DNA of 64,000 nt from an uncultured Candidatus Saccharibacteria bacterium (GTDB lineage: Bacteria > Patescibacteriota > Saccharimonadia > Saccharimonadales > JACDBH01). The number at the start of each line of letters is the position of its first letter. Within the stretch, counting starts at the first letter, position 1. A model generated the notes under the pieces. The model did not search any database. It worked only from the letters and a program-made list of their open reading frames with translations, and was not told the origin of the DNA. Below, in pieces: positions 32,856 through 47,366 of this stretch. The translations under genes were made by a program, and so were the position numbers. The stretch lies in NCBI GenBank assembly GCA_965231105.1, contig OZ246417.1:164094-228093 (forward strand), read 5' to 3'.

Positions 32856-32887
32856 AAAAAGACCGGCTCTTGGTGGCCGGTTTTTTT
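32856..32887. terminator. Bidirectional rho-independent terminator
   Basis: ACCGGC (32862-32867) pairs with GCCGGT (32876-32881), with an A5 run upstream and a T7 run downstream. It sits between convergent genes. Confidence 0.65.
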
Positions 32888-34079
32888 ATTGATTCTCTTT
32901 AGCGCCCATACAAATAGGACAGTTGTCTTCGGAATCCAAAGTATCTAATAGGTGTCCGGTGGCTTTCCACCATGGTTCTAGATCTTTATATCCAATCCAG
33001 TCTGCAGCCTGTCGGAGCAACCAGCCCATCCAGCCATAAATAGTTACCTTACCCCATACGACTGCAGCCCATCTTTTGCCTGCCGGAGTAATATAAATAG
33101 GCCGTTTTGGCTTGTACGCATACGGCTTTTTACCCTTCTCATGTCTTAGAAGATTCTCCACCACAAAATGGGCATTATGGAGTGCGGTTTGAGCCATACC
33201 GGAGTATGGCGTATCGGCATTGTCTCCTATCACAAAAATTCCTGGCCATGCCTGGAGGAGTTTATCTACCTGCACTTTTCCGTTCGGTGCCAATTGAAAA
33301 TTATTGTTTGCAAAAAACGGATTGTTGGCGACACCAGCAGTCCATATCACGGTCCGGGTACGGATACTCTTGCCACCTACTAAAAGTGCATGTGCTGTCT
33401 CTGCTTGCACCGGCAGGCCAAGGTGTAATTTAACGCCGAGATGACGTAGTCTCTTGGCGATTGATCGCGAGACTCTTTTAGGCATGCGAGGCATTAAACG
33501 AGGCGCTGCCTCTACGAGATCAATACGAACATTTCGTTTTCGGATGCCGTGTTGCTTCATGATTTTACGCATATAAAATGGCAACGCTCCTGCCAACTCG
33601 ATACCAGTTGGACCGCCACCAATAATGACATAACTTAAGTCTGGCTTACCTGTATCAATCAGCTGCTGATGGAGATGGGCCTTCAACTCTTCTGCCTCGG
33701 CAATTGACTTAATGCCAAACGAGTATTCCTTCAAGCCTTTGATGCCGAAGTAATTGGTGATGCTGCCGAGCGCAAGAATAAGTACGTCGTAGCGAATGCG
33801 TTCACCTGAAGCAGTGATGAGGACTTTGTTTGCTCGGTCAATTTTCTCAGCTCGATCAACACCAATCGTTATATTCTTTTGCTCAAAGATTTCAACCAGC
33901 GGAATTTCAGATACTTCGCGCGATCCACCCGTAGCGGTGTGATACAACGTGGGATGGTAATGGAATGAATAGCGATCCGAGATAAGCATTACATCGAATG
34001 CGTCATGATCGGCCAATTCTAAGGCAGATTTAACACCACCAAAGCCTCCGCCCACAATCACGACTTTCTTTTTTCGCAT
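32886..34079 (-). CDS. ndh: Type II NADH dehydrogenase (NDH-2)
   Basis: KKVVIVGGGFGGV and YVIIGGGPTGIELAG dinucleotide folds, plus IFVIGDNA. SD GAAGGAAAGG. Confidence 0.85.
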   Translation of the reverse strand: MRKKKVVIVGGGFGGVKSALELADHDAFDVMLISDRYSFHYHPTLYHTATGGSREVSEIPLVEIFEQKNITIGVDRAEKIDRANKVLITASGERIRYDVLILALGSITNYFGIKGLKEYSFGIKSIAEAEELKAHLHQQLIDTGKPDLSYVIIGGGPTGIELAGALPFYMRKIMKQHGIRKRNVRIDLVEAAPRLMPRMPKRVSRSIAKRLRHLGVKLHLGLPVQAETAHALLVGGKSIRTRTVIWTAGVANNPFFANNNFQLAPNGKVQVDKLLQAWPGIFVIGDNADTPYSGMAQTALHNAHFVVENLLRHEKGKKPYAYKPKRPIYITPAGKRWAAVVWGKVTIYGWMGWLLRQAADWIGYKDLEPWWKATGHLLDTLDSEDNCPICMGAKENQ

Positions 34080-34174: not shown

Positions 34175-35830
34175 ATGGAAGACATTATTGCCCTGCTCAA
34201 GGGTGCTGGGTTTAAAGGGGGCATTGATAGCAGTGATAATACCCGCAGCGCCTATAGCCATGACGCTTCCCTTTTTGAAATAAAGCCAGAACTCGTCGTC
34301 TTTCCAAAGAACAGTACCGATGTGAAGAAACTCGTGCGACTCGTTGCGGCACGAAAACCAAAGCAACAAAAACTCAGCCTTACGGCTCGAAGTGCCGGTA
34401 CGGACATGTCTGGAGGTGCTATTAACGACTCCATTATCGTTGACTTTAATAAGCACTTTACCGAGATAGAAAAAGTAACGGGCAGTAGTGCGACAGTACA
34501 GCCCGGTGTCTTTTATAGGGACTTTGAAAAAGCAACTCTTAAACATGGTGCCTTGCTGCCGCCCTATCCTGCTTCACGCGATCTCTGCACAATAGGCGGG
34601 ATGGTTAATAACAACTCGGGTGGTGAAAAGTCCCTGCAATATGGCAAGACTGATAATTTTGTTACCGAACTTAAAGTAGTGCTCGCAGATGGTAACGAAT
34701 ATACGGTAAAGCCGCTAAATAAGGCTGAACTTGTACGCAAGATGTCGCAAAAGAATTTTGAAGGTAAAGTTTACCGCGAAACCTTTGAGCTGCTTGAAAA
34801 GCACTACGACGTTATTAAAGCGGCTAAGCCAAATGTGACGAAGGATTCTACGGGCTACCACTTATGGAATGTATGGGACCGTGAAACCGGTATATTTGAT
34901 CTCACAAAACTATTTGTAGGAGCTCAGGGTACGCTTGGCTTCACGACTGAAGCCAAATTCCGTCTAGTCCCAGCCCCACAGCACTCCGGTACGCTGGTTA
35001 TTTTCCTTCGAGATATTAAGAGCCTAGGAAAAATTATCAATAAGGTGCTTACCCATCAACCGGCTACGTTTGAAGGTTTTGATAACTACACATTGATGCT
35101 GAGTTTTAAGTTATTTTTCTCTTTTCATAAACTTATTGGCTGGAAGGAAACAATTAAACTTGCGTTTCAACTGCTTCCGAATGCCTTAATGTTGCTTCGC
35201 GGTATTCCTAAAATGGTGTTGCTCGTAGAGTTCAATGGCCAGACTCCAGAAGAAGTCGCAGATAAAGTGCGTAACATGCGTCTTGATCTTAAAGAATTTA
35301 GACAAAAAATGTTGTTTGAAGAAGACGAGACCGAAGCCAAGGCGCGTAAGTTCTGGATTATGCGCCGGGCAAGCTTTCAGCTACTTCGAAGCAAAGTAAA
35401 AGACAAGCATACCGCTCCCTATATTGATGATCTTGTCGTTAACCCTGAACATTTGCCGCAATTCTTGCCGAAACTTCGTAAGATCATTAAGAAGTATAAG
35501 CTTCTTGCAACGATTGCGGGTCACATGGGTGACGGAAACTTTCATATCATTCCCCTCATGGAACTTGAGCAAGAAGATGAGCGCAAGAAACTAAAGCCGA
35601 GCATGAAAGAAGTAAACGAGCTTGTGCTGAAATACAAAGGCAGTTTAAGTGGTGAACATAATGATGGTTTGGTGCGTGGACCGTGGTTGGATGAGATGTA
35701 CGGCAGAAAAGTTGTAAAGCTGTTTAAAGAAACAAAGAAGATTTTCGATCCAGATAACATTTTCAATCCACATAAGAAAGCAGACGCAACATGGGACTAT
35801 AGTTTCTCTCATGTGCGAGAACGTTTCTAA
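34175..35830 (+). CDS. FAD-linked oxidase (GlcD / D-lactate dehydrogenase-like)
   Basis: ARSAGTDMSGGAIN, CTIGGMVNNNSGG, GAQGTLGFTTEAKF and GSLSGEHNDG follow the FAD_binding_4 plus FAD-oxidase_C pattern. Confidence 0.75.
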   Translation: MEDIIALLKGAGFKGGIDSSDNTRSAYSHDASLFEIKPELVVFPKNSTDVKKLVRLVAARKPKQQKLSLTARSAGTDMSGGAINDSIIVDFNKHFTEIEKVTGSSATVQPGVFYRDFEKATLKHGALLPPYPASRDLCTIGGMVNNNSGGEKSLQYGKTDNFVTELKVVLADGNEYTVKPLNKAELVRKMSQKNFEGKVYRETFELLEKHYDVIKAAKPNVTKDSTGYHLWNVWDRETGIFDLTKLFVGAQGTLGFTTEAKFRLVPAPQHSGTLVIFLRDIKSLGKIINKVLTHQPATFEGFDNYTLMLSFKLFFSFHKLIGWKETIKLAFQLLPNALMLLRGIPKMVLLVEFNGQTPEEVADKVRNMRLDLKEFRQKMLFEEDETEAKARKFWIMRRASFQLLRSKVKDKHTAPYIDDLVVNPEHLPQFLPKLRKIIKKYKLLATIAGHMGDGNFHIIPLMELEQEDERKKLKPSMKEVNELVLKYKGSLSGEHNDGLVRGPWLDEMYGRKVVKLFKETKKIFDPDNIFNPHKKADATWDYSFSHVRERF

Positions 35831-37711: not shown

Positions 37712-37786
37712 TAGGGCGTCGCCAAGTGGTAAGGCACCAGGTTTTGGTCCTGGCATTCGGGGGTTCGAATCCCTCCGCCCTAGCCA
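37712..37786 (+). tRNA. tRNA-Gln (anticodon UUG), CCA encoded
   Basis: Acceptor TAGGGCG pairs with CGCCCTA (U1:A72). Anticodon stem CCAGG/CCTGG with loop TTTTGGT. T-arm GGGGG-TTCGAAT-CCCTC. Confidence 0.9.
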
Positions 37787-37800
37787 GTTTTTGCAGATTT

Positions 37801-38394
37801 TTAGATCGTTATATCTCGGACGCTAAATGGTTCAACGGTCATTACGTTTCTAGGTACCGAATCGGTTATTGCAATACGGCCCCCAAGAACTTTCTTTACG
37901 ACTGTAAATCTATTATTAAACCTTGAAGGCTGGTCTAGTTCCTTGCCCACGTAGTCGTACATGTCAGTTACAGGAATCCACTTTTCTGTCTGGGATAGGT
38001 GCCTAGCAATTGCAAAAGTCTGCTCAATAGCAGTCGTTGCAGCGGATTTATAAACCGGTAATCTTTTTCTTTTTACGAGGTTACCACCAAATTTATGTAC
38101 AACCACTCCGAGGGAGTTAAAGATAGTCAAGTTGTCGAAATCGAAATCAAGGATATCACTGCCAGGAGCGCTTTCTGATTCAAGCTCAAAAGCTGGTAGC
38201 CCAACCTTTTCACGGAGAGCCTGAAGGAGTTCTATTTGTTCTCGGCGGCCTTCCCCGCTGAGAAGACGCGGACTTCTCAAGTAGTCGTCTATAGTAGCGC
38301 GAGCTCCTTCGGCGACAATTTCACCGGAAGGATTTGTAGAAAGCTGGCCAAGTACTGCGAGTCCTGATTTAAAAATATCCTGTTCTGAAGACAT
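37801..38394 (-). CDS. Hypothetical protein (197 aa)
   Basis: ORF trimmed to ATG 38394 (MSSEQDIF). No family recognised. Confidence 0.45.
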   Translation of the reverse strand: MSSEQDIFKSGLAVLGQLSTNPSGEIVAEGARATIDDYLRSPRLLSGEGRREQIELLQALREKVGLPAFELESESAPGSDILDFDFDNLTIFNSLGVVVHKFGGNLVKRKRLPVYKSAATTAIEQTFAIARHLSQTEKWIPVTDMYDYVGKELDQPSRFNNRFTVVKKVLGGRIAITDSVPRNVMTVEPFSVRDITI

Positions 38395-38439
38395 GGGGTT
38401 ATTATAAAATAATAATATCAAAAGTAAAATGGACCCGAG

Positions 38440-39120
38440 CTATTTATTAACTGTAATATACCCACTAACTTCTGGATTACTATGATCATGGAATATAAAC
38501 GTTCCTGCTTGGTTAAGAGTGAGGGTTTTAGGACGCCTGTCGGTAACAGTTGCTTCTTGACCGGCATAACTCACGATTTCGGGATGCTGCCCAAATGATA
38601 TTTGACTTGTCTCTTCCCCCTCATTAATAAAGGTGAGGGTGTCACAGCGTTGGGCTTCAATTTGGAACGGGCTGAACTGTCCGCCACTAATCGTGACTTT
38701 ATGATTAGCTCCCAATTCCTGGCAGGCCCCGGTTTCTTCCCCGCCAATTTGAGCAATTCCCTCGTCCTGAGCAAGCTTTTTCGTTACTTCTGTCGGAGAC
38801 ATGTTGTAGTGGAGGTTATCCATGATAAATATGGAGCCAAATACCGTGACCAGAATAATGCCAACCGTAGCTATAAAGAAGACTACGTTATACAGCGGCT
38901 TTGGTCCGCGACCCAAATGAAGGAAGAAGAATATTTGGATAATCATCTGCCATACGGCAAAGCTCAGAATTGTGAGTAGGAGCGCATTACCTGTGAGCGA
39001 TTTGCCCACTACCAAGAAGTATGCCGTAAGCGTACAGGCGATGGACAATACGAATCCAATAATATATGACGACATAGTGCCGTGCTCTTCTGGTGGCTGG
39101 CCGTGAGAAGTCTTGCTCAT
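38440..39120 (-). CDS. cyoD: Cytochrome o ubiquinol oxidase subunit IV fused to a C-terminal cupredoxin-like domain
   Basis: The N-terminal ~110 aa has three TM segments aligning with CyoD (SYIIGFVLSIACTLTAYFLVV...FFFLHLG). The extra ~110 aa carry the pattern HKVTISGGQFSPFQIEAQRCDTLTFINEG...GTFIFHDHSNPEVSGYITV. Confidence 0.75.
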   Translation of the reverse strand: MSKTSHGQPPEEHGTMSSYIIGFVLSIACTLTAYFLVVGKSLTGNALLLTILSFAVWQMIIQIFFFLHLGRGPKPLYNVVFFIATVGIILVTVFGSIFIMDNLHYNMSPTEVTKKLAQDEGIAQIGGEETGACQELGANHKVTISGGQFSPFQIEAQRCDTLTFINEGEETSQISFGQHPEIVSYAGQEATVTDRRPKTLTLNQAGTFIFHDHSNPEVSGYITVNK

Positions 39121-39716
39121 GCAAATGCTCCTAAATACACAAAGGTAAAGATAAATATCCAGACAAGGTCAAGGAAGTGCCAGAAGAGACTTAAAAGACT
39201 TAGCTTACGTACCATTCTTTCGTTAAGTCCCCTTTTATGCATATATGCCAGTGTAATGGCCATCCATAGTAGTCCTGAGAAAATGTGAAGACCATGAGTG
39301 CCTACCAGCGCAAAGAATGAAGAGAAAAATGCGTTCGTACTAATCGTATGACCCTCATGAATGAATTCGGTAAATTCCCACAGTTCTAGCCCTAAGAACG
39401 AGAGACCTAAGATAAAAGTTACGCCGAACCAACCAAAGACCTGTTTCTTATTGCCCATTCTCGCCGCGATCATACCGATGCCAACAGTAAAGCTACTGGT
39501 GAGCAGGATGAGTGTTTCTGCTAATACAAGTGGAAGGCTAAATAGGTCACGGCCGGTTGGACCACCTAGCGTATTGCCCCCTAGGACTGCATACACTGCA
39601 AACAGAATGGCAAACATCAAAAGGTCGGTCATCAAGTAGACCCAGAAACCGAACATCGCGCGGTCGTTCGATGCCGCTTCGTGCTCTTCCTCGTGCTGTG
39701 TTACCACGTGCGCCAT
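39117..39716 (-). CDS. cyoC: Cytochrome o ubiquinol oxidase subunit III
   Basis: MFGFWVYLMTDLLMFAILFAVYAVL and FWHFLDLVWIFIFTFVYL blocks. ATGA overlap with cyoD. Confidence 0.9.
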   Translation of the reverse strand: MAHVVTQHEEEHEAASNDRAMFGFWVYLMTDLLMFAILFAVYAVLGGNTLGGPTGRDLFSLPLVLAETLILLTSSFTVGIGMIAARMGNKKQVFGWFGVTFILGLSFLGLELWEFTEFIHEGHTISTNAFFSSFFALVGTHGLHIFSGLLWMAITLAYMHKRGLNERMVRKLSLLSLFWHFLDLVWIFIFTFVYLGAFA

Positions 39717-41785
39717 CGTTTATTCCTCAGCACATCAAGTGCCCATTTTAGTACGATCTTAACGAACTCAATGAGGCCCATATCTTCCTCTTTTTGTGGC
39801 GCTGCGTTTTCTGCGACCGTTTTCTTTTCGCGGGCTTTCTCAAGTTTCTCTACCTCGTCTGCCGGAATGGTGTATTCAATATTGTCGTTAAAGGTGCGGG
39901 TAATGGTGAAGACGATGATGCCTACAATTGAAACTACCGCGAGCCAAACGATTTCCCAGACGAATGCAAACCCGGTAAGGAAGGCACAGATAGAAATGTA
40001 TATGCCTGAGGCAGTATTTCGAGGCATATGAATGTTCTCGAAACGATGCTTAGGTAAGCCCTGCTGTTTCATCTCCCAGTATGCGTCACGAGATGTAACC
40101 TCAGGTATAACGGTAAAGTTGTATGAAGGCGGTGGAGATGCTGTTGCCCATTCGAGCGTTCGTCCATCCCAGGGATCGCCCGTAGTATCGCGTAACTGCC
40201 TTTTTTGGATAACGCTCGCAATGATTTGAACAATCTGGAGCACGACACCAACTGCAATAATCAGACCGCCTACCAGTGCCATAATATAAAATGGCTGCCA
40301 ACCTGTTGAGGAGTCGTAGTGATCAAGTCTTCTGGTAGCACCCATGAGCCCCAATACATAGAGTGGCGTAAAGGCCATCAAGAAGCCCACAATCCAACAC
40401 CAAAACGCATATCGCCCAATACGTTCGTTCAGCCTAAAGCCTGCAATTTTTGAGAACCAGTACGAAATACCCGCAAAGATACCAAATAGTACACCGCCAA
40501 TAACCATCGTATGGAAATGTGCAACTAGGAATAGGCTGTTATGAAGTTGGAAGTCGACGGGCGGTACGGCTAACAGCACACCTGCCATACCTCCGATTGC
40601 AAATATTCCTACAAATCCTAAGAACCAGAGCATCGGCGTCTTAAAGCTAATCCGGCCCTTATACATTGTGGCAATCCAGGTAAAGAACAGTACCGATGTG
40701 GGTATAGCAATAATCATGGTCATGAGTCCAAAGAACGCATTGACATTTGCGCCTGCACCCATTGTGAAGAAGTGGTGTAGCCACACGGAAAGTGCAAAAG
40801 CCGAAACACCGATCATGCCCACTACATTAGACATATAGCTGGCGATACGTTTGCGGCTAAAGGTTGAAACAATTTCTGAAAATACACCGAACGACGGCAG
40901 CATTAAGATATAGACTTCTGGGTGTCCCCACATCCAAATAAGATTGGTATACATCATGGCATTGCCGCCAAGTGTGGTGGTAAAGAAGTGGGCGCCTAAG
41001 TAGCGATCAAAGAACATGAGGAACAGCGTCATGGTTAACAGCGGAAAGACAGTTACCGCCATAATCATGCTGCAGAGCGAGCCCCATGTAAACAGCGGCA
41101 TCTTTCGAAGGGTCATGCCCGGAGCGCGCATTTTAAGAATGGTCATAATGAAGTTAATGGCTCCTAAAGTAGTACCAATACCAGATATCTGTAGACTCCA
41201 TATCCAATAATCTACCCCCACTCCCGGACTGAACTCCGTTCCCGATAAAGGCGCAACAGCGAGCCAGCCGGTCGCGGCGTACTCACCGCCTAACATGAAG
41301 AACATGTTGACCATAACAACACCGGCCACGAATAACCAGAATCCCAAGGTATTTAGAAATGGCGAGGCAAGGTCCCGTGCCCCAATTTGCAAGGGCACAA
41401 TGTAATTTATGAGGCCAAAGATAAAGGCCATCGCGACAAAGAAGACCATGATATTGCCGTGAGCGGTAAAGACCTGCTGGAAGTGTTCTGCAGATAGATA
41501 GCCATGGGATGCTCCAGAAGATAATGCCTGTTGGAGCCAGATCATAATGGCATCAAGTCCACCACGAAGTAACATGAACCCACCAACTAAGAAGTACATG
41601 ATCCCAATCTTTTTTGGATCAACCGACGTGAGCCACTCGTTCCATAGCCACTTCCAACGTTTTAGCTTGGTAATAACGATAATGGCAAACAGGCCCATGC
41701 CGAGGAAAGCGATCGTCCCCGCGATGGTGAACCATTCGTGCGGTAATGCATGGAGGTTTAATTTACCTAAAAGGAGTTCTTTCAT
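39701..41785 (-). CDS. cyoB: Cytochrome o ubiquinol oxidase subunit I (heme-copper oxidase)
   Basis: WLTSVDPKKIGIMY, WGHPEVYILMLP, HHFFTMG and VAHFH motifs, with about 14 or more TM segments. Confidence 0.95.
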   Translation of the reverse strand: MKELLLGKLNLHALPHEWFTIAGTIAFLGMGLFAIIVITKLKRWKWLWNEWLTSVDPKKIGIMYFLVGGFMLLRGGLDAIMIWLQQALSSGASHGYLSAEHFQQVFTAHGNIMVFFVAMAFIFGLINYIVPLQIGARDLASPFLNTLGFWLFVAGVVMVNMFFMLGGEYAATGWLAVAPLSGTEFSPGVGVDYWIWSLQISGIGTTLGAINFIMTILKMRAPGMTLRKMPLFTWGSLCSMIMAVTVFPLLTMTLFLMFFDRYLGAHFFTTTLGGNAMMYTNLIWMWGHPEVYILMLPSFGVFSEIVSTFSRKRIASYMSNVVGMIGVSAFALSVWLHHFFTMGAGANVNAFFGLMTMIIAIPTSVLFFTWIATMYKGRISFKTPMLWFLGFVGIFAIGGMAGVLLAVPPVDFQLHNSLFLVAHFHTMVIGGVLFGIFAGISYWFSKIAGFRLNERIGRYAFWCWIVGFLMAFTPLYVLGLMGATRRLDHYDSSTGWQPFYIMALVGGLIIAVGVVLQIVQIIASVIQKRQLRDTTGDPWDGRTLEWATASPPPSYNFTVIPEVTSRDAYWEMKQQGLPKHRFENIHMPRNTASGIYISICAFLTGFAFVWEIVWLAVVSIVGIIVFTITRTFNDNIEYTIPADEVEKLEKAREKKTVAENAAPQKEEDMGLIEFVKIVLKWALDVLRNKRWRTW

Positions 41786-42693
41786 TCGTGCTCCGTATGT
41801 GGCGCGTGAGACCCGCCGTATTTCATAAGCACTTTACCATACAAGCCTGTTTCGGCCGAAGCATAGAACGCGGCGGGATTATTTTCACTGGGCTCTAATA
41901 ATTTCTCGTATGCTGCAGTATCGAGCGCTTCCGCAGAGGACTTTGTTTCTTGTACCCAGCGAGCAAAGTCTTCGGTGGAGCTTGCTCGTGCAATAAACTT
42001 CATGCCAGCAAAACCTTCGCCATTAATTTCCGCGGAGCTTCCCTTATAGTCGCCGGGGGTCTCGGCCATAAGATTAAGGCGGTTTGCGTGCCCGGTCATG
42101 GCATATAACTGCCCACCCCAATGCGGAATCCAGAACGAGCTCATTGGTGCTTCATCTGCGGTGAGCTCAAACTGCACCGGTCTATTAGTAGGAACCTGGA
42201 CAAAATTAACTGATGCGATATTCTCTTCAGGGTAAATAAAGAGCCACTTCCAGCGTAAGGCAACTACCTGAATAGTGAGCGGATCTACGCCATTATCGAT
42301 AAGTTTCTGAGGCGCTAACTTATGGGTAGCCGGCCACATAACCGATGCAAGTAAAATCATGGTAATAAACGGAAATGCCCACATACTGGCTACTACAACC
42401 TTATTGTGATGGGTGTTCGGTGCATATGTAGCTTTCTCATTAGACTCGCGGTATTTCCAGGCGACAAAGTAAAACAGTGCTAATGTCGGGATGGCAATTT
42501 CAAGCATTAATGCTACTGACAGGATCATTAAACGACGCTGTTCTCCTGCTATGAGCCCTTGGGGATTAAGGAGGGCGACATCGTTATCTCGTAAGAGCAC
42601 GGCAACGAGTAGCGTGAGACACGCTAAACCCAGAACAGTAAGCCATATAGGCCTACTCTGACTAAACCTTTTTTTAGATTTTACCCTTGTCAC
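41782..42693 (-). CDS. cyoA: Cytochrome o ubiquinol oxidase subunit II (no CuA site)
   Basis: WKWLFIYPE, FWIPHWGGQLYAM and GSSAEINGEGFAGMKF. The CuA ligand pattern CxExCGxxHxxM is replaced, as in quinol oxidases. GTG start. Confidence 0.9.
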   Translation of the reverse strand: MTRVKSKKRFSQSRPIWLTVLGLACLTLLVAVLLRDNDVALLNPQGLIAGEQRRLMILSVALMLEIAIPTLALFYFVAWKYRESNEKATYAPNTHHNKVVVASMWAFPFITMILLASVMWPATHKLAPQKLIDNGVDPLTIQVVALRWKWLFIYPEENIASVNFVQVPTNRPVQFELTADEAPMSSFWIPHWGGQLYAMTGHANRLNLMAETPGDYKGSSAEINGEGFAGMKFIARASSTEDFARWVQETKSSAEALDTAAYEKLLEPSENNPAAFYASAETGLYGKVLMKYGGSHAPHTEHE

Positions 42694-42771: not shown

Positions 42772-43650
42772 ATGCTAAGACAAATAATGAGAGAGAACAT
42801 ACAGGCTTACTACCAACTAGCCAAGCCCGGGATTATTTATGGCAATAGTCTATCGGTGATTGCGGGATTTTTTCTTGCCTCCCAAGGTGATCTCTCACTA
42901 AAAACGTTTGCATCTGTCTTGTTAGGCGCAGCACTTGTTATGGGCTCTGGCTGTGTCTTTAATAATTACATTGACCGAGGCATTGATAAGAAAATGGCTC
43001 GCACTAAAAAGCGTGCGCTCGTGACACAGGCTATTCCAGTGCAGCATGCACTTATCTACGCCACAGTTCTTGGTTTGCTCGGCTTTCTCTTCCTTGCACT
43101 CGGCACGAATCTCCTGACTGTTGGAGTCGGTGCAGTTGGGCTATTTACCTATGTCGTCGTGTACGGCATCGCGAAACGTACAACGGTGCACGGTACGATT
43201 ATTGGAAGTATCGCGGGTGCAATCCCGCCGGTGTCTGGATATACTGCCGTGACTGGTTCGCTTGATAGTGGCGCCTGGCTATTATTCCTCATCCTAACCT
43301 GTTGGCAAATGCCACACTTTTATGCAATTGCTACCTACCGGAGGGAAGATTATGCGGCTGCCGGTATTCCGGTACTGCCAGTAAAGAAAGGCATCAAGCA
43401 AACGAAGGTGCAGATTGTTCTCTACACTCTCGCCTTTATTATTGCCGCTTCTCTTCTTTTCTTCTTTGATTACGTCGGATATGTGTATCTTATAGTTATG
43501 CTTGCGGTTGGATTATGGTGGTTGCGTCTAGGAATCCACGGTTTTCAAGCTTTAGATGCTAATAAGTGGGCGCGTAAAGTGTTTGGATCCTCGCTCATTG
43601 TTTTATTGGTTTTTTGCAGCGTTACTTCACTTGATGCGTGGCTGCCATAG
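42772..43650 (+). CDS. cyoE: Protoheme IX farnesyltransferase (heme O synthase)
   Basis: UbiA-type motif NNYIDRGIDKKMARTKKRAL. Multi-TM. Divergent from cyoABCD. Confidence 0.9.
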   Translation: MLRQIMRENIQAYYQLAKPGIIYGNSLSVIAGFFLASQGDLSLKTFASVLLGAALVMGSGCVFNNYIDRGIDKKMARTKKRALVTQAIPVQHALIYATVLGLLGFLFLALGTNLLTVGVGAVGLFTYVVVYGIAKRTTVHGTIIGSIAGAIPPVSGYTAVTGSLDSGAWLLFLILTCWQMPHFYAIATYRREDYAAAGIPVLPVKKGIKQTKVQIVLYTLAFIIAASLLFFFDYVGYVYLIVMLAVGLWWLRLGIHGFQALDANKWARKVFGSSLIVLLVFCSVTSLDAWLP

Positions 43651-43658
43651 GGTATAAT
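43631..43658 (+). promoter_or_regulatory. Internal promoter: -35 TTGATG / -10 TATAAT, 16-nt spacer
   Basis: TTGATG at 43631-43636 lies inside the cyoE 3' end and TATAAT at 43653-43658. The ATG at 43665 lies 6 nt downstream with no SD. Confidence 0.5.
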
Positions 43659-43664
43659 TCTATT

Positions 43665-43928
43665 ATGCTTATACTTTTTCATGTACTTAGTGCCCTCGCC
43701 GGTATTCTCTTTGCTTTCTTATTACTCATTGCGCCATCAAGATCAAGACTTCATATTGCAGGTACTCTTATAGCCACTACCATTGCGAGCGGCACGTGGT
43801 TAGTGATGAGGAGCAAGGCTCACATTATTCAAACCTGTATAACCGGACTCATATATCTCGCTGTTACTCTCGGCTGCGCCATTATTGGACATCGCAAATT
43901 GCAAGCCCTTGAAAAGACTGAACGATAA
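43665..43928 (+). CDS. Small 3-TM membrane protein (87 aa)
   Basis: ORF 43638-43928 trimmed to ATG 43665. Three hydrophobic helices. No family recognised. Confidence 0.5.
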   Translation: MLILFHVLSALAGILFAFLLLIAPSRSRLHIAGTLIATTIASGTWLVMRSKAHIIQTCITGLIYLAVTLGCAIIGHRKLQALEKTER

Positions 43929-44633
43929 TTAACCTCGTTGATTTTCAGAAAGATGAAGTGTCTTAACGACAGGCATTAGTCGTCTACGCATCGCTTCAGG
44001 AATCATCCGCCGATAGGTATTACGTACGCGTATGTATATGTCGGCATCATTTAGATCTCTTAGGCGCTCAAAAGGTTCGTACATGTCGGGCGATAACTGT
44101 GAAGATTTTGGCAGGGTTCGACGTAATTTATGCATAGCTTCCCTTGTTAGCTCGTCCTGAGCGCGTATATTGCCGTTCATGCCATAGAGAACAATATGCG
44201 TCTGGGCCGGTACGGTTGTGATGATGGCTTCTGCGGCTGATCGGCCGGTGACGGGTTCCATGACGGCAGGATGAAGCTCTTCTGCAAAATTCTGCCTTGA
44301 TGAAGTTAGGAACCAAGTATTGTTTTCCTGCACAAGCCTTACAAGCGCGTTACTAAAACCAGTAGGGTCGATCTCAAATGGCTCAGCTTCTGCTGAGGTA
44401 AGTCGGGTCATGTCCGCATTTACGACATCAATGTCCCGGGCTTTCTCGGGCGTCCCAATGAAAATTTCATCACGAATCGAGTATTCATGTTGAGGGTCGC
44501 CATAAAATTTGCCATATAAAACTGAGCGACCAAGCGACCCCACGATCCGCATATCGGGTTGAGAAATGCTCAAAGCATCGAGTTGGGCATATAACGAGTC
44601 AGGCGTATGGAGCGCCTCATTAAACGCACGCAT
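43929..44633 (-). CDS. Hypothetical protein, possible Pol-beta-type nucleotidyltransferase fold
   Basis: VGSLGRS followed by ARDIDVV resembles the G[SG]...DxD signature of minimal nucleotidyltransferases. This is weak evidence. Confidence 0.4.
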   Translation of the reverse strand: MRAFNEALHTPDSLYAQLDALSISQPDMRIVGSLGRSVLYGKFYGDPQHEYSIRDEIFIGTPEKARDIDVVNADMTRLTSAEAEPFEIDPTGFSNALVRLVQENNTWFLTSSRQNFAEELHPAVMEPVTGRSAAEAIITTVPAQTHIVLYGMNGNIRAQDELTREAMHKLRRTLPKSSQLSPDMYEPFERLRDLNDADIYIRVRNTYRRMIPEAMRRRLMPVVKTLHLSENQRG

Positions 44634-44735
44634 GGCTGTGTACTATATAATTTATTTAATAATTTAGCAATAACTAAGAAATATGCGTAAGCAATATTGT
44701 GTTCGCTGCATCTCTGTATTACACTTGCTCCTAAG

Positions 44736-45293
44736 ATGAAAAATACAAACTCCGTGAGTAATTGGCTGCAAATAGCCGTTGTTCGAGTTGCGAGGCTACA
44801 TTTTTTCTACGTTGCTGCTTATATGGTGGCAATCATTGCATTTGACTCATGGAATCTTATTACGCATGAAGGTATTGTGCAGCGCTGGACGCTGGCCGTT
44901 TGCCTACTTATTCTCACGACAATTGTCTGGTACATAGCTCGTGGACCCTGGCTAAAAGGTGCGCAACACCGCATTCTACTTGGTATGGTTGTGGTCGGAG
45001 ATATCCTATTTGCTGCAATCAATGTCTACATGCAACGTGGCATGGCCAGTAAGTCGGTGGCTCTTTTTGCTATTCCCCTCATGACGGCTGCTGTTTTGCA
45101 CAGCAGACGTGCAATTCTAGCAACCGCATCCCTCTGTGTAGCGGCTTATTCATTTGCTGCCATTCGCTATTTCCATCTTCATTATGGCGAAGGCTTTAAG
45201 GTTGAGCTGTATGGCGAGGTGGGTTTTTATTCAGCCATTTTCTTTGTCATGGCTGCATTGCTAGTTTTGCTTGTTGCCCCTAAGAAGGACTAA
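44736..45293 (+). CDS. Hypothetical integral membrane protein (about 5 TM)
   Basis: ORF trimmed to ATG 44736 (MKNTNSV). Repeated hydrophobic segments. Confidence 0.5.
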   Translation: MKNTNSVSNWLQIAVVRVARLHFFYVAAYMVAIIAFDSWNLITHEGIVQRWTLAVCLLILTTIVWYIARGPWLKGAQHRILLGMVVVGDILFAAINVYMQRGMASKSVALFAIPLMTAAVLHSRRAILATASLCVAAYSFAAIRYFHLHYGEGFKVELYGEVGFYSAIFFVMAALLVLLVAPKKD

Positions 45294-46058
45294 CTATCGC
45301 AAGAAATAAGTTACGGTAACCGAGTAGCTTAATTCGTTTTCGCCTGGTTGTACGGCGAGGCTTGTGCTGGAACTTACGGCTGTATCGAGCGCGCCGCGTT
45401 CAGCGTATGGCATAATGCCAAAGCCCGATCCATCCGTGACTGTTTTTACCTTCCCTACCTTGAAGCCAAGGTTCTTTGCCATTTGATCAGCTTTGCTTCG
45501 CGCATCTTTGGTGGCTTCATCGCGAGCTTTTGATTCTAGTTCTTTGCGCTTTGCATCGCTGAAGCTTGCCTGTGGCGAAACTGCTCCTGATGGTGTTGTG
45601 CTGACAAGGTAGTCTTGGATTTTCTGAGCCTCTTCCAGTGAGCTAAGCGTGATAGTGAGCTGCAATGTGTAGGTAGGCTCTTGAGCCTTGTCTTCAAAGT
45701 AATACACTGGATAGTCATAGTTTGATGAATTAGTTTTTATCTTGCTGTCAGGCACGCCAAGTTCTTTAAGTTTGGCAACAATCGCACCACTCTTTTCGGT
45801 CATTGCTGCAAGTGCCGCAGTCTTATCAGCATTCTTAAACTCGTAGGAGGGATAAAAGACAAATTCATCCGGAGAATCGGTTAGGGTCGCTTCGCCCGTT
45901 ACCTCAATCGTCTGATCACTAGAGGACGTGGCTTCCCATGGCCTCCATAGAGCCAGCATGCCGGCAATGACAAGTAAAAGTAAAACGACAATAACGCGTA
46001 AATCAAATGAAAAACTCACCTTACTCTTAGAAGGTTGTGTGGTGTTTTGCTCTGGCAT
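45294..46058 (-). CDS. SIMPL/DUF541 family periplasmic protein
   Basis: N-terminal TM. The ARDEATKDARSKADQMAKNLGFKVGKV helix and C-terminal LSYSVTVTYFL are typical of the SIMPL family. Confidence 0.65.
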   Translation of the reverse strand: MPEQNTTQPSKSKVSFSFDLRVIVVLLLLVIAGMLALWRPWEATSSSDQTIEVTGEATLTDSPDEFVFYPSYEFKNADKTAALAAMTEKSGAIVAKLKELGVPDSKIKTNSSNYDYPVYYFEDKAQEPTYTLQLTITLSSLEEAQKIQDYLVSTTPSGAVSPQASFSDAKRKELESKARDEATKDARSKADQMAKNLGFKVGKVKTVTDGSGFGIMPYAERGALDTAVSSSTSLAVQPGENELSYSVTVTYFLR

Positions 46059-46112
46059 TTTTTGCTCCTTATGTTGGTTTTAGTGTTGCTCGTTATACTG
46101 AAAAAGTAAAGC

Positions 46113-47366
46113 TTAAAAACGGTTGCTTATACGCCACCAGGTAGATGGTTGCGCGAGAGAAGAAGTTATTGTTAGGGGGGTTGCGGTGATGCCCTGCTTT
46201 GTAGGTACCTTAATCGCGCCAACGACCTGATCTTTTGTGGCAGGTGTATTAATTTCCACTGTGCTAATTTCTGGGCTAATCGATGATCCTTTCCACCCAT
46301 AATGAAGGATAGAATCACTGGCAACGATATTGGTGGTTTGCCCCCACGGAGTTTGGTATGAACCAATAACACTGTCTTTCTTTACCACCTCCCGTATGCC
46401 AAAACCCTTGAAGGCAGACTCGAGCAGGCTGCTGCTGGCAGGAAATACGGAACCGATTGTGGGACTTCCTAGTACCGCCCCAATTACCGTTACGCTGTGG
46501 GTATCGTCAATAATGTGTTTAGCTGCGAATAAGAGACAGCCTCCTGCCTCATCCGTGTTACCCGTTTTAATCCCTACTACTCGGCTATCGGCAAGTAAAT
46601 GATTGGTGTTTCGTATTGTTCTTGCAACGGGAACGGATGTTTCACGCTTCGCTACGATGCCGCTTAAAACAGGGTCGGATAAGATCTTTTGACCCAAGAT
46701 TATAAGATCCGTGGGTGTGCTGAGCGTACGAGGAGAAAACCCACTGGCATCATCGATGGTGGTTTTTAGCATGCCAAATTCTTTCACCATGTCATCTGCA
46801 TATAATTTATAGGCATCCATCGAGCCAAACGCCCATCGCACCAAAGAATCAGCGATGTTATTGGCTGATGGTAGCAAGAGTGCTTCAAGAGCCTGATACT
46901 GCGAAAGTTGTTCACCAACTTGAACCGGGACAATCGAACCATTGCGTGCAAGGTAGTCACTATAATAGGCAACATCTTGGGTATCGAGCGTAAGTATTGT
47001 CCCCTGCTCACCTGCCGCAAAAGGTTTTGCACGCATAATAGCAAGTGCTGTTACGACTTTGGCAATGCTTGCAATGGGCCGAGGCGTTTGGCCCTCTGAA
47101 GACATTGCGAGTATGCCCTCTTCAAGGCTGCCGATTGCAGCCTGACCTTGCGTAGGCCAATTAAGAGCGACCGCTTCTGCTGCAAGCGGACTTAGTGCCG
47201 AAACACTCGGAGTAATTGTGGGTAATGCCTGCGTTAAAGTTGAGTATGTAAAGCCTGCACCTGAAAGCAGAAGAACAGTAATAAGCACTAATGCGAGAAA
47301 ACGACGTAAAAACGAGTGCCTTTTTACTGGCCGTGCTTCGCGGTATCGGTACGCTTTAATTTCCAT
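46113..47366 (-). CDS. D-alanyl-D-alanine carboxypeptidase (peptidase S11, PBP5-like)
   Basis: SIAK (SxxK), LLPSANN (SxN) and IKTGNT (KTG) motifs occur in the correct order. N-terminal TM. Confidence 0.85.
   Translation of the reverse strand: MEIKAYRYREARPVKRHSFLRRFLALVLITVLLLSGAGFTYSTLTQALPTITPSVSALSPLAAEAVALNWPTQGQAAIGSLEEGILAMSSEGQTPRPIASIAKVVTALAIMRAKPFAAGEQGTILTLDTQDVAYYSDYLARNGSIVPVQVGEQLSQYQALEALLLPSANNIADSLVRWAFGSMDAYKLYADDMVKEFGMLKTTIDDASGFSPRTLSTPTDLIILGQKILSDPVLSGIVAKRETSVPVARTIRNTNHLLADSRVVGIKTGNTDEAGGCLLFAAKHIIDDTHSVTVIGAVLGSPTIGSVFPASSSLLESAFKGFGIREVVKKDSVIGSYQTPWGQTTNIVASDSILHYGWKGSSISPEISTVEINTPATKDQVVGAIKVPTKQGITATPLTITSSLAQPSTWWRISNRF

Follow-up and report, generated by a model that had tools for sequence, protein, structure and literature searches.

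Subunit IV of bo3-type quinol oxidases is a small protein, and its role is poorly understood. In Escherichia coli this subunit, CyoD, consists of three transmembrane helices, is encoded after cyoC and ends at residue 109, with its C-terminal end on the periplasmic side (topology as in UniProt and the structure), and it is reported to be needed for the incorporation of CuB. In a stretch of 64,000 nucleotides from an uncultured Candidatus Saccharibacteria bacterium (contig OZ246417.1 of assembly GCA_965231105.1, positions 164,094 to 228,093; in the following "the window"), the last gene of a cyoA-cyoB-cyoC-cyoD operon, all on the minus strand, encodes a protein of 226 amino acids (aa; 38440..39120, minus strand). 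It represents CyoD in a bo3-type quinol oxidase that is canonical in other respects. With E. coli CyoD it has in common the three helices, the operon position behind cyoC and the set of partner subunits, including a conserved quinol site, but it continues for 119 residues beyond the E. coli end, with a linker helix and a cupredoxin domain. The tail corresponds, in covalently linked form, to a membrane-anchored accessory protein for which related Saccharimonadia have a separate gene beside the cyo operon, and the fusion points to an undescribed accessory module of the quinol oxidase. Papers on the cyo operon of Saccharibacteria treat cyoD as ordinary (PMC8407418, PMC11659515), and at most a separate "blue-copper protein" is mentioned (PMC6031116). 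No description of a CyoD-cupredoxin fusion, or of the family to which the tail belongs (here termed HDH-type after its His-Asp-His motif), was found in the literature, and as far as found, the HDH signature and its link to cyo appear to be undescribed.

The N-terminal ~110 aa had been described in a first-pass annotation of the window as a normal three-helix CyoD, and they are just that. In the CyoD core (residues 1-107, 38800..39120, minus strand), residues 10-107 align without a gap with residues 9-106 of the 109 residues of E. coli CyoD (PDB 6wti_D, E 5.5e-15), and AlphaFold2 (AF2) places the helices at 16-38, 45-69 and 75-103. The core matches PF03626 (COX4_pro) with 42 bits (cutoff 28.9) over profile positions 1-72 of 72, and TIGR02847 with 75.3 bits (equivalog cutoff 81.45) over positions 1-95 of 96, i.e. 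it is divergent and of full length. Because the alignment reaches almost to the last residue of E. coli CyoD, the extra 119 residues start exactly at the E. coli end. They begin with a linker (residues 108-132, 38725..38799, minus strand), formed by a helix (109-120) and the conserved sequence AQDEGIxQ(V/I)GGExTGA, in which E120, T130, G131 and A132 are invariant among 120 fused homologues. As this motif still ends the unfused CyoD of relatives that have the two parts on separate genes (...QDEGIQPSSNY in locus L057, ...IKDEGIKK in L134), the linker helix belongs to the CyoD of the clade, and the fusion junction lies after the linker. The cupredoxin-fold domain itself comprises residues 133-226 (38443..38724, minus strand). 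The span to which the first-pass annotation had referred, 38440-38780, corresponds to residues 114-226 plus the stop codon, and the peptide strings that it had quoted are present in the translation.

That the ~110 extra residues are cupredoxin-like had been proposed from their strand pattern, and structure and sequence now agree on it. An AF2 model of the tail, made with 123 homologues, has a predicted local distance difference test score of 84.3 and a predicted template modelling (TM) score of 0.76, and comprises the helix 109-120, the linker and an all-beta domain with eight to nine strands. A Foldseek comparison with the PDB gave 363 matches at E<=1e-3. Those listed, 50 in number, are all cupredoxin-fold proteins or domains, chiefly amicyanin, plastocyanin and pseudoazurin, with no unrelated fold among them. 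Amicyanin, plastocyanin and pseudoazurin match with E ~1e-7 to 1e-6 and TM-scores of 0.55-0.62 (query) and 0.65-0.77 (target), for example amicyanin with E 1.5e-7 and a target TM-score of 0.69; the purple cupredoxin 5fc9 reaches a target TM-score of 0.77; cupredoxin domains of NirK and N2O reductase as well as EfeO are also among the fold matches. At the level of sequence, a profile of 28 tails finds amicyanin among the PDB sequences with E 3.8e-5, without any gap across the C-terminal ligand loop. The tail alone scores 25.4 bits (E 1.5e-5) with PF13473 (Cupredoxin_1), which is just below the gathering cutoff of 27, and relatives pass that cutoff, such as the standalone protein of L057 with 35.8 bits; PF13473 is also precomputed for many fused homologues. 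This family, which includes for example the N-terminal Cup domain of EfeO (PDB 7wgu), captures the tail, yet is a broad catch-all. The cupredoxin assignment is thus supported by the agreement of fold match and sequence homology, and the tail descends from amicyanin-type blue-copper proteins, with which it shares the Greek-key beta-sandwich and, in the case of amicyanin, the very length of the ligand loop. It differs from amicyanin, plastocyanin and pseudoazurin in an additional Cys pair, an HxxH loop and the HDH motif, and in that it is tethered to the membrane and not soluble. A cupredoxin fold that was retained in the same enzyme after an ancestral copper loss is known from the periplasmic domain of CyoA, but this is another cupredoxin lineage: the best sequence match of the tail is amicyanin and not COX2, and CyoA has no such His cluster.

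The fusion is the rule in a whole clade rather than an isolated case. When 5.8 billion proteins were searched, 818 homologous clusters were obtained, and the best 120 homologues have 219-279 aa and cover 94-100% of the query. In a scan of one genome per species, the fusion is continuous in 56 of 57 loci, nearly all of them labelled Saccharibacteria, Saccharimonadales/Saccharimonadia or Patescibacteria group; a few labelled just "bacterium", Limnocylindrales, Verrucomicrobiia, Bacillota or Parcubacteria presumably reflect labelling or binning noise. The reading frame is continuous in the window, the G+C content is uniform across the operon (~45%), and the identical 226-aa product has been assembled from three separate sequencing runs.

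The functional relation to the oxidase is further supported by relatives in which the two parts are separate. In L057 (Saccharimonadia), cyoABC is accompanied by an unfused CyoD of 125 aa, and a separate gene adjoining cyoA encodes a 141-aa protein with an N-terminal membrane anchor and the same cupredoxin domain. The split form, i.e. an unfused CyoD of 125-130 aa and an anchored-domain gene by cyoA or cyoE, is found in L057, L058, L061/62, L063, L071 and L134, and tblastn indicates the split layout also for L080 and L138. A split/fused pair of this Rosetta-stone type argues that the domain works with the oxidase, and in the fusion the domain's own anchor has been swapped for helix 3 of CyoD. 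The standalone proteins form a large family with at least 396 representatives: an exhaustive HMMER search with the window tail against 1.84 billion cluster representatives gave 396 proteins at E<=1e-3 and 68 at E<=1e-10, and most of the 396 have 125-145 aa, which is the anchor plus the domain. Their near-invariant signature is C...CD...FG-x-H-x-x-H-x-x-Y...F-H-D-H, and His, Asp and Glu abound in the loop that follows HDH (HDHx[HDQ][DE]E in 150 standalone sequences). No NCBIfam model that names the HDH-type subfamily was found. Standalone copies next to cyo genes are no closer to the fused tails than others, with mean scores of 75-79 bits in every context class. Two large proteins, P0207 (1723 aa) and P0210 (880 aa), were considered as members and rejected, as they have no HDH/HxH motif or Cys pair; their 11 and 5 tandem beta-sandwich repeats with GTYTYTLN-type strands match the tail weakly (27% identity) and are probably functionally unrelated to it.

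The tail is predicted to face the outside of the cell membrane, as had been suggested from the topology of E. coli CyoD. Consistent with this, the tail starts at the very position where E. coli CyoD ends, it carries an invariant Cys pair, and all of 102 full-length metagenomic standalone proteins have an N-terminal hydrophobic segment after a net positive charge, which predicts an N-in, domain-out orientation. The N-in anchor is shared by known extracytoplasmic copper chaperones.

Judged by the gapless alignment with amicyanin, the blue-copper (type-1) site is gone, with all four ligand positions replaced. In place of H53, C92, H95 and M98 of amicyanin there are R172 (family consensus; Ser in the window), D212 (invariant in the fused homologues and present in the window), D215 (family consensus; Asn in the window) and V218 (family and window), and the loop reads fhDhldpevtG in the tail and yhCtphpfmrG in amicyanin. 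The tail is not a blue-copper electron carrier. The first-pass annotation had let H-D-H take the place of the C..H..M of blue-copper proteins, which is imprecise: the H-D-H motif is there (H211-D212-H213, codons cat-gat-cat, 38482..38490, minus strand), with D212 at the position of the Cys ligand, but the positions of Cys, His and Met are filled by D212, N215 and V218, and H211 and H213 only flank the former Cys. Likewise, a Cys is indeed missing at the type-1 position, as had been stated, but the tail as such contains two invariant cysteines, C133 (38722-38724) and C159 (38644-38646), which delimit the segment 38644..38724 (minus strand). C133 is part of an invariant TGAC motif, and C159-D160 corresponds in the alignment to the G40-D41 turn of amicyanin. 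The two cysteines, which probably form a disulfide, are both present in 120 of 120 fused homologues and in 148 (C133) and 150 (C159) of the 150 standalone sequences; here and below, counts for the fused family refer to the best 120 of the 818 homologues, and those for the standalone family to 150 sequences that are almost all representatives at <=50% identity. D212 is kept in 120/120 fused and 146/150 standalone sequences, H211 in 108/120 and 144/150, and H213 in 106/120 and 145/150. In the HxxH loop, which reads H179-P-E-I182 in the window (38575..38586, minus strand) with Ile in place of the second His, H179 is kept in 103/120 and 142/150, and H182 in 85/120 and 144/150. D160 (146/150), G177 (150/150) and Y185 (149/150) are similarly conserved in the standalone sequences. 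The window copy has the HDH signature with C133, C159-D160, F176-G177, H179, Y185 and F210-H211-D212-H213, only H182 being missing, and with I182, S172, G168 (D168 in the family) and N215 it is a slightly degenerate member.

Other known copper sites do not fit the tail either. There is no CuA motif H...C-x3-C-x3-H-x2-M in it, its two Cys being 26 residues apart, and the CxxxC plus His of Sco, the H(M)X10MX21HXM of PCuAC and the Cys motif of Cox11 are absent from its sequence, without any corresponding Pfam or NCBIfam match. As these defining motifs are absent, the tail is neither a type-1 blue-copper domain nor a CuA domain nor a known copper chaperone, although a role analogous to that of the chaperones is still conceivable. 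Sco, PCuAC and Cox11/CtaG resemble the HDH-type proteins in their N-terminal tether and outward beta-rich domain and in being encoded by oxidase genes, but they bind Cu(I) via Cys and Met, whereas the HDH-type family offers His, Asp and Tyr. PCuAC has been described as cupredoxin-like, with the motif given above (PMC6696091). The replacement of Cys by Asp together with a hydrophobic axial residue mirrors the engineered "type-zero" copper of azurin C112D/M121L. A His/Asp/His/hydrophobic site of this kind was nevertheless rejected as the general site, since no more than 6/150 standalone and 3/120 fused sequences have both canonical His, and the window copy is not one of them.

The conserved histidines behave like a unit. 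H140, H179, H211 and H213 occur together in 100 of the 120 fused homologues, and in fused tails the loss of H179 (mostly to Tyr) is coupled to that of H211 (Fisher p 1e-10, uncorrected for phylogeny). With H179, H182, H211 and H213 counted as the cluster, all four are kept in 33 fused loci, three in 10 (including the window and its three duplicates), two in 2, and none or one in 16. Three His-poor loci (L106, L119 and L161) contain, in addition to the fused gene, an adjacent standalone copy; their fused tails have FTDS, FYDQ and FHDS and no HxxH, and the standalone copies are His-complete. Such an adjacent copy is present in 3 of 16 His-poor and 0 of 45 His-rich fused loci (p ~0.02, with locus sets that were ascertained differently). 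This complementarity suggests that the His site has its own function. Their conservation in the standalone sequences and their joint loss in fused tails indicate that the histidines would represent one functional site rather than a part of the scaffold, a site that is relaxed in the fused form. In a group of fused tails (L021, L023, L028, L032, L039, L043, L045, L048, L049, L051-L053), H179 and H211 are replaced by Tyr; these "Tyr-type" tails, which lack a standalone copy within 6 kb, show the pattern C, C, Y, x, Y, Y-D-x and may be a distinct variant of the module.

The oxidase itself looks, by its sequence, like an ordinary bo3-type quinol oxidase. Its genes follow one another in the order cyoA-B-C-D, with stop and start codons that overlap; between cyoC (subunit III, 199 aa, 39117..39716, minus strand; PF00510 COX3, E 8e-17) and the fusion gene, this overlap amounts to 4 nt. 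The cyoB product (subunit I, 694 aa, 39701..41785, minus strand; E 1.9e-247 to E. coli CyoB, 1fft_A) keeps the quinol-site motifs LLRGGLDAIM and EHFQQ, with the equivalents of R71, D75, H98 and Q101, and its CuB and haem histidines are intact in WGHPEVY, WLHHFF and AHFHTM. As the quinol site is complete, no extra electron entry is needed. In CyoA (subunit II, 303 aa, 41782..42693, minus strand; E 9.6e-67 to E. coli CyoA, 1fft_B; PF06481, PF00116), the string SAEINGEGFAGM aligns with SASYSGPGFSGM of E. coli and contains no CuA Cys or His, so that the statement of the first-pass annotation about missing CuA ligands in subunit II is upheld by the alignment. Divergently from cyoA, a cyoE-like haem O synthase of the UbiA family is encoded (292 aa, 42772..43650, plus strand; PF01040, E 7.9e-63), and 40 of 57 related loci have a homologue of it in the vicinity of the operon. 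Beyond cyoA, the window contains in 42772-47366, after this cyoE-like gene, genes for a 234-aa open reading frame (ORF) without family, a PilS-like protein with six transmembrane segments, a SIMPL/DUF541 protein and a D-Ala-D-Ala carboxypeptidase, none of the genes in this region being obviously copper-related. On the other side, ~3-5 kb from the operon, there are genes of an NDH-2-like pyridine nucleotide-disulfide oxidoreductase (32886..34079, minus strand) and of a 551-aa flavin adenine dinucleotide (FAD)-linked oxidase of the D-lactate/glycolate dehydrogenase type (34175..35830, plus strand), which together with cyo look like a compact respiratory island. Homologues of the FAD-linked oxidase are found by cyo in 16/57 fused and 13/120 listed standalone loci, and of NDH-2 in 9/57 and 5/120. 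A 206-aa ORF without Pfam match (37801-38421, minus strand) follows 18 nt past the stop of the fusion gene and is probably co-transcribed with it because of this short distance. No homologue of this ORF was found in any of ~180 related loci; it is carried only by the three identical assemblies, appears to be strain-specific, and as it is not conserved in the related loci it was ruled out as a part of the system. A tRNA-Gln gene (37712-37786, plus strand) lies ~15 nt from its 3' end.

Standalone genes are also found in other surroundings. With a fixed-spacing DNA pattern that is specific for the standalone type and was validated on known loci, at least 120 metagenomic loci were obtained, many on short contigs. 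In the 120 listed loci, the standalone gene adjoins cyo genes in 32, the FAD-linked oxidase alone, a gene that accompanies cyo, in 3, a canonical type-1 cupredoxin in 7, a VKOR in 1, and none of these in 77. Twenty of the loci have at least 2.5 kb of flank on both sides, and 6 of these adjoin cyo. In L060 (7589-8411), the gene of a genuine blue-copper protein (…YHCKIHPQMHG, 62 bits with an amicyanin model) lies 10 nt upstream of its HDH-type paralogue, and the two have the identical length of the ligand loop; they are apparently co-transcribed. The same arrangement, with a type-1 blue-copper gene (YHCKIHPQM) immediately upstream of the HDH-type gene, is seen in L092, L111, L120, L131, L163, L178 and L183. 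A VKOR-family gene is located between cyoA and the standalone gene in L057 (5246-5851), L061/L062 (7357-7962) and L072 (3071-3649). VKOR proteins form disulfides and reduce quinones, which fits an extracytoplasmic disulfide, and the quinol produced would be re-oxidised by the oxidase. Since neither the window nor most of the loci contain a VKOR gene, a general link to disulfide formation was discarded, and the gene was treated as incidental support only.

What the tail does is so far best captured, tentatively, by an outward-facing, non-blue metal-binding module, the metal probably being copper, that would serve the oxidase as an accessory. Sitting on the outer face of the oxidase, it would bind a metal ion, most likely Cu(II), via histidines next to the former copper site. 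The predicted ligands in the family are H179, H182, H211 and H213, possibly with D212 and Y185, and three of the four His are kept in the window. The tail could then capture copper locally and deliver or hold it, in order to build or maintain CuB of subunit I, and it would replace chaperones of the Sco, PCuAC or Cox11 type, which may be missing from these tiny genomes. Such a role would agree with the reported need for subunit IV in the incorporation of CuB in E. coli. In the three loci L058, L061 and L062, the genes up to a distance of 8 kb gave no Pfam matches to Sco, Cox11 or PCuAC. Copper is favoured because of the ancestry of the scaffold, the cuproprotein neighbourhoods, a layout of tether and beta-domain as in Sco, PCuAC and Cox11, and the abundance of His, Asp and Glu in the loop, as would suit hard metal ions, Cu(II) among them. 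The first-pass annotation had left open whether the tail binds metal, a partner or quinol-related substrates; this range is narrowed insofar as metal binding is favoured, with no single function settled.

Several points weigh against such a copper module. The known CuB chaperones rely on Cys and Cu(I) instead of His clusters, and no dedicated chaperone is known for the assembly of E. coli bo3. In about a quarter of the fused tails, no more than one of the four His is left, with Tyr in place of H179 and H211, and for 13 of these tails a standalone copy is missing within 6 kb; the window copy itself lacks H182 (Ile) and has Ser, Gly and Asn in place of the family's R172, D168 and D215. The residues that are invariant in all forms (C133, C159, D160, Y185, D212, G220) could all be structural, and we infer the closeness of the four His to each other from topology and covariation only. 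Also, 12 of the 20 well-flanked standalone loci are not beside cyo or any recognisable cuproprotein gene, and 21 of the 120 listed standalone loci adjoin instead a conserved polytopic membrane protein of ~212 aa. This protein, encoded for example in L064 (4080-4721) and L068 (1834-2472), where its gene is divergently adjacent to the standalone gene, and in 19 further loci (L064-L183), has two invariant His in separate helices (motifs LHPG and FYHxL), and is often accompanied by a 208-aa kinase-like and BrkB/YihY proteins. It may be a partner of the standalone module. No relative of it was found in Pfam, NCBIfam or the PDB, and a suspected identity as a haem b or ferric-reductase-type protein was not confirmed and is not used here.

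The main rival, somewhat less likely, is a metal-free structural cap. In this reading the domain is a degenerate scaffold that docks either on the outer face of subunits I/III or, in a neighbouring monomer, on subunit II; as these cells have no outer membrane, it would stabilise the complex or shield it, and the histidines would be interface residues. The invariant C133, C159, D160, Y185, D212 and G220 can plausibly be understood as structural, with a disulfide, a GDT-type turn that amicyanin has as well, and a staple of the loop; a quarter of the fused tails have Tyr for histidines, the window is already without H182, and CyoA keeps a metal-free cupredoxin fold in the same enzyme. In E. coli bo3 dimers, subunit IV touches subunit II of the other monomer, so that an appendage of subunit IV could make an inter-monomer contact (PMC10037687). 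However, the four His, the Asp and the Tyr of the site are each found in 142-149 of 150 standalone sequences, which is unusually strict for a docking surface, standalone copies are found also away from cyo and beside a genuine blue-copper protein, and His-poor fused tails are complemented by His-complete standalone neighbours.

The His cluster might also have a redox or catalytic role with non-blue copper, which is clearly less probable. It would then bind type-2-like copper, alone or together with a second cupredoxin domain, for electron transfer or for the detoxification of reactive oxygen species (e.g. superoxide) at the outer membrane face by the oxidase. The H-D-H of the tail shares its strand position with H-C-H in multicopper oxidases and Cys-His in copper nitrite reductase, where catalytic copper is bound by the flanking His at the interface between domains; the cupredoxin domains of NirK and N2O reductase are among the fold matches, and the tandem pairing with a canonical type-1 cupredoxin is in line with such a role. 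The organisms are from oxic soil, where the oxidase has been proposed to scavenge oxygen (PMC6031116). On the other hand, the complete quinol site makes an extra electron entry unnecessary, no partner domain or substrate channel was identified, and fused tails, that of the window included, have a relaxed His site. We know of no second cupredoxin domain that could complete an interface site with the tail. A still bolder version, for which the chances appear low, regards the HDH-type as a new natural class of copper centre, in which Asp replaces the type-1 Cys and the flanking His together with HxxH bind type-2-like copper for an extracellular catalytic or redox function. If so, the site might be completed with the cupredoxin domain of CyoA or of a second copy, it could serve for example in superoxide removal or as a second electron entry for the oxidase of ultra-small episymbionts, and it would be a living analogue of the single-domain ancestors that have been postulated for multicopper oxidases.

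A module for ligands or partners, which acquires host quinone or haem or attaches to the host-cell surface, is very improbable. It would be attractive insofar as the domain is surface-exposed and tethered to an enzyme that needs both cofactors, and as the biosynthesis of quinone and haem is reported to be absent from Saccharibacteria, which are said to scavenge the two (PMC6031116, PMC8407418). Still, no hydrophobic pocket or lipid-binding signature was detected in the tail, the conserved residues are polar (His, Asp, Tyr), and there is no supporting signal from gene neighbourhoods. Cupredoxin folds are not known to act as quinone or haem carriers. Finally, the first-pass annotation had named a sequencing frameshift that joined two genes as a possible refutation, and split versions do exist in some relatives. 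A frameshift in sequencing or assembly that joined cyoD to a separate downstream cupredoxin gene is excluded by the continuous frame in the window, in 56/57 loci and in 818 clusters and by the same product in the three runs, and in the split versions the standalone gene is found at the opposite end of the operon, in most cases in the reverse orientation, and encodes a membrane anchor of its own.

The architectural novelty across the clade is solid, and the function is what we infer from it. Under current annotation these proteins go either as plain "cytochrome o ubiquinol oxidase subunit IV" or as "cupredoxin domain-containing protein", and the connection between the two is overlooked. For metalloprotein chemistry, the family provides hundreds of natural blue-copper scaffolds with Asp for Cys and a strictly conserved His cluster. 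A conserved outward domain that is fused to subunit IV or encoded next door across a clade is also a handle on the role of this subunit. Saccharibacteria and other bacteria of the Candidate Phyla Radiation have minimal genomes, and it matters for their physiology whether and how they assemble a working copper- and haem-dependent oxidase, for oxygen scavenging or for real respiration; the presence of a dedicated clade-specific module speaks directly for an oxidase that these organisms maintain and adapt, and against just a recently acquired passenger.

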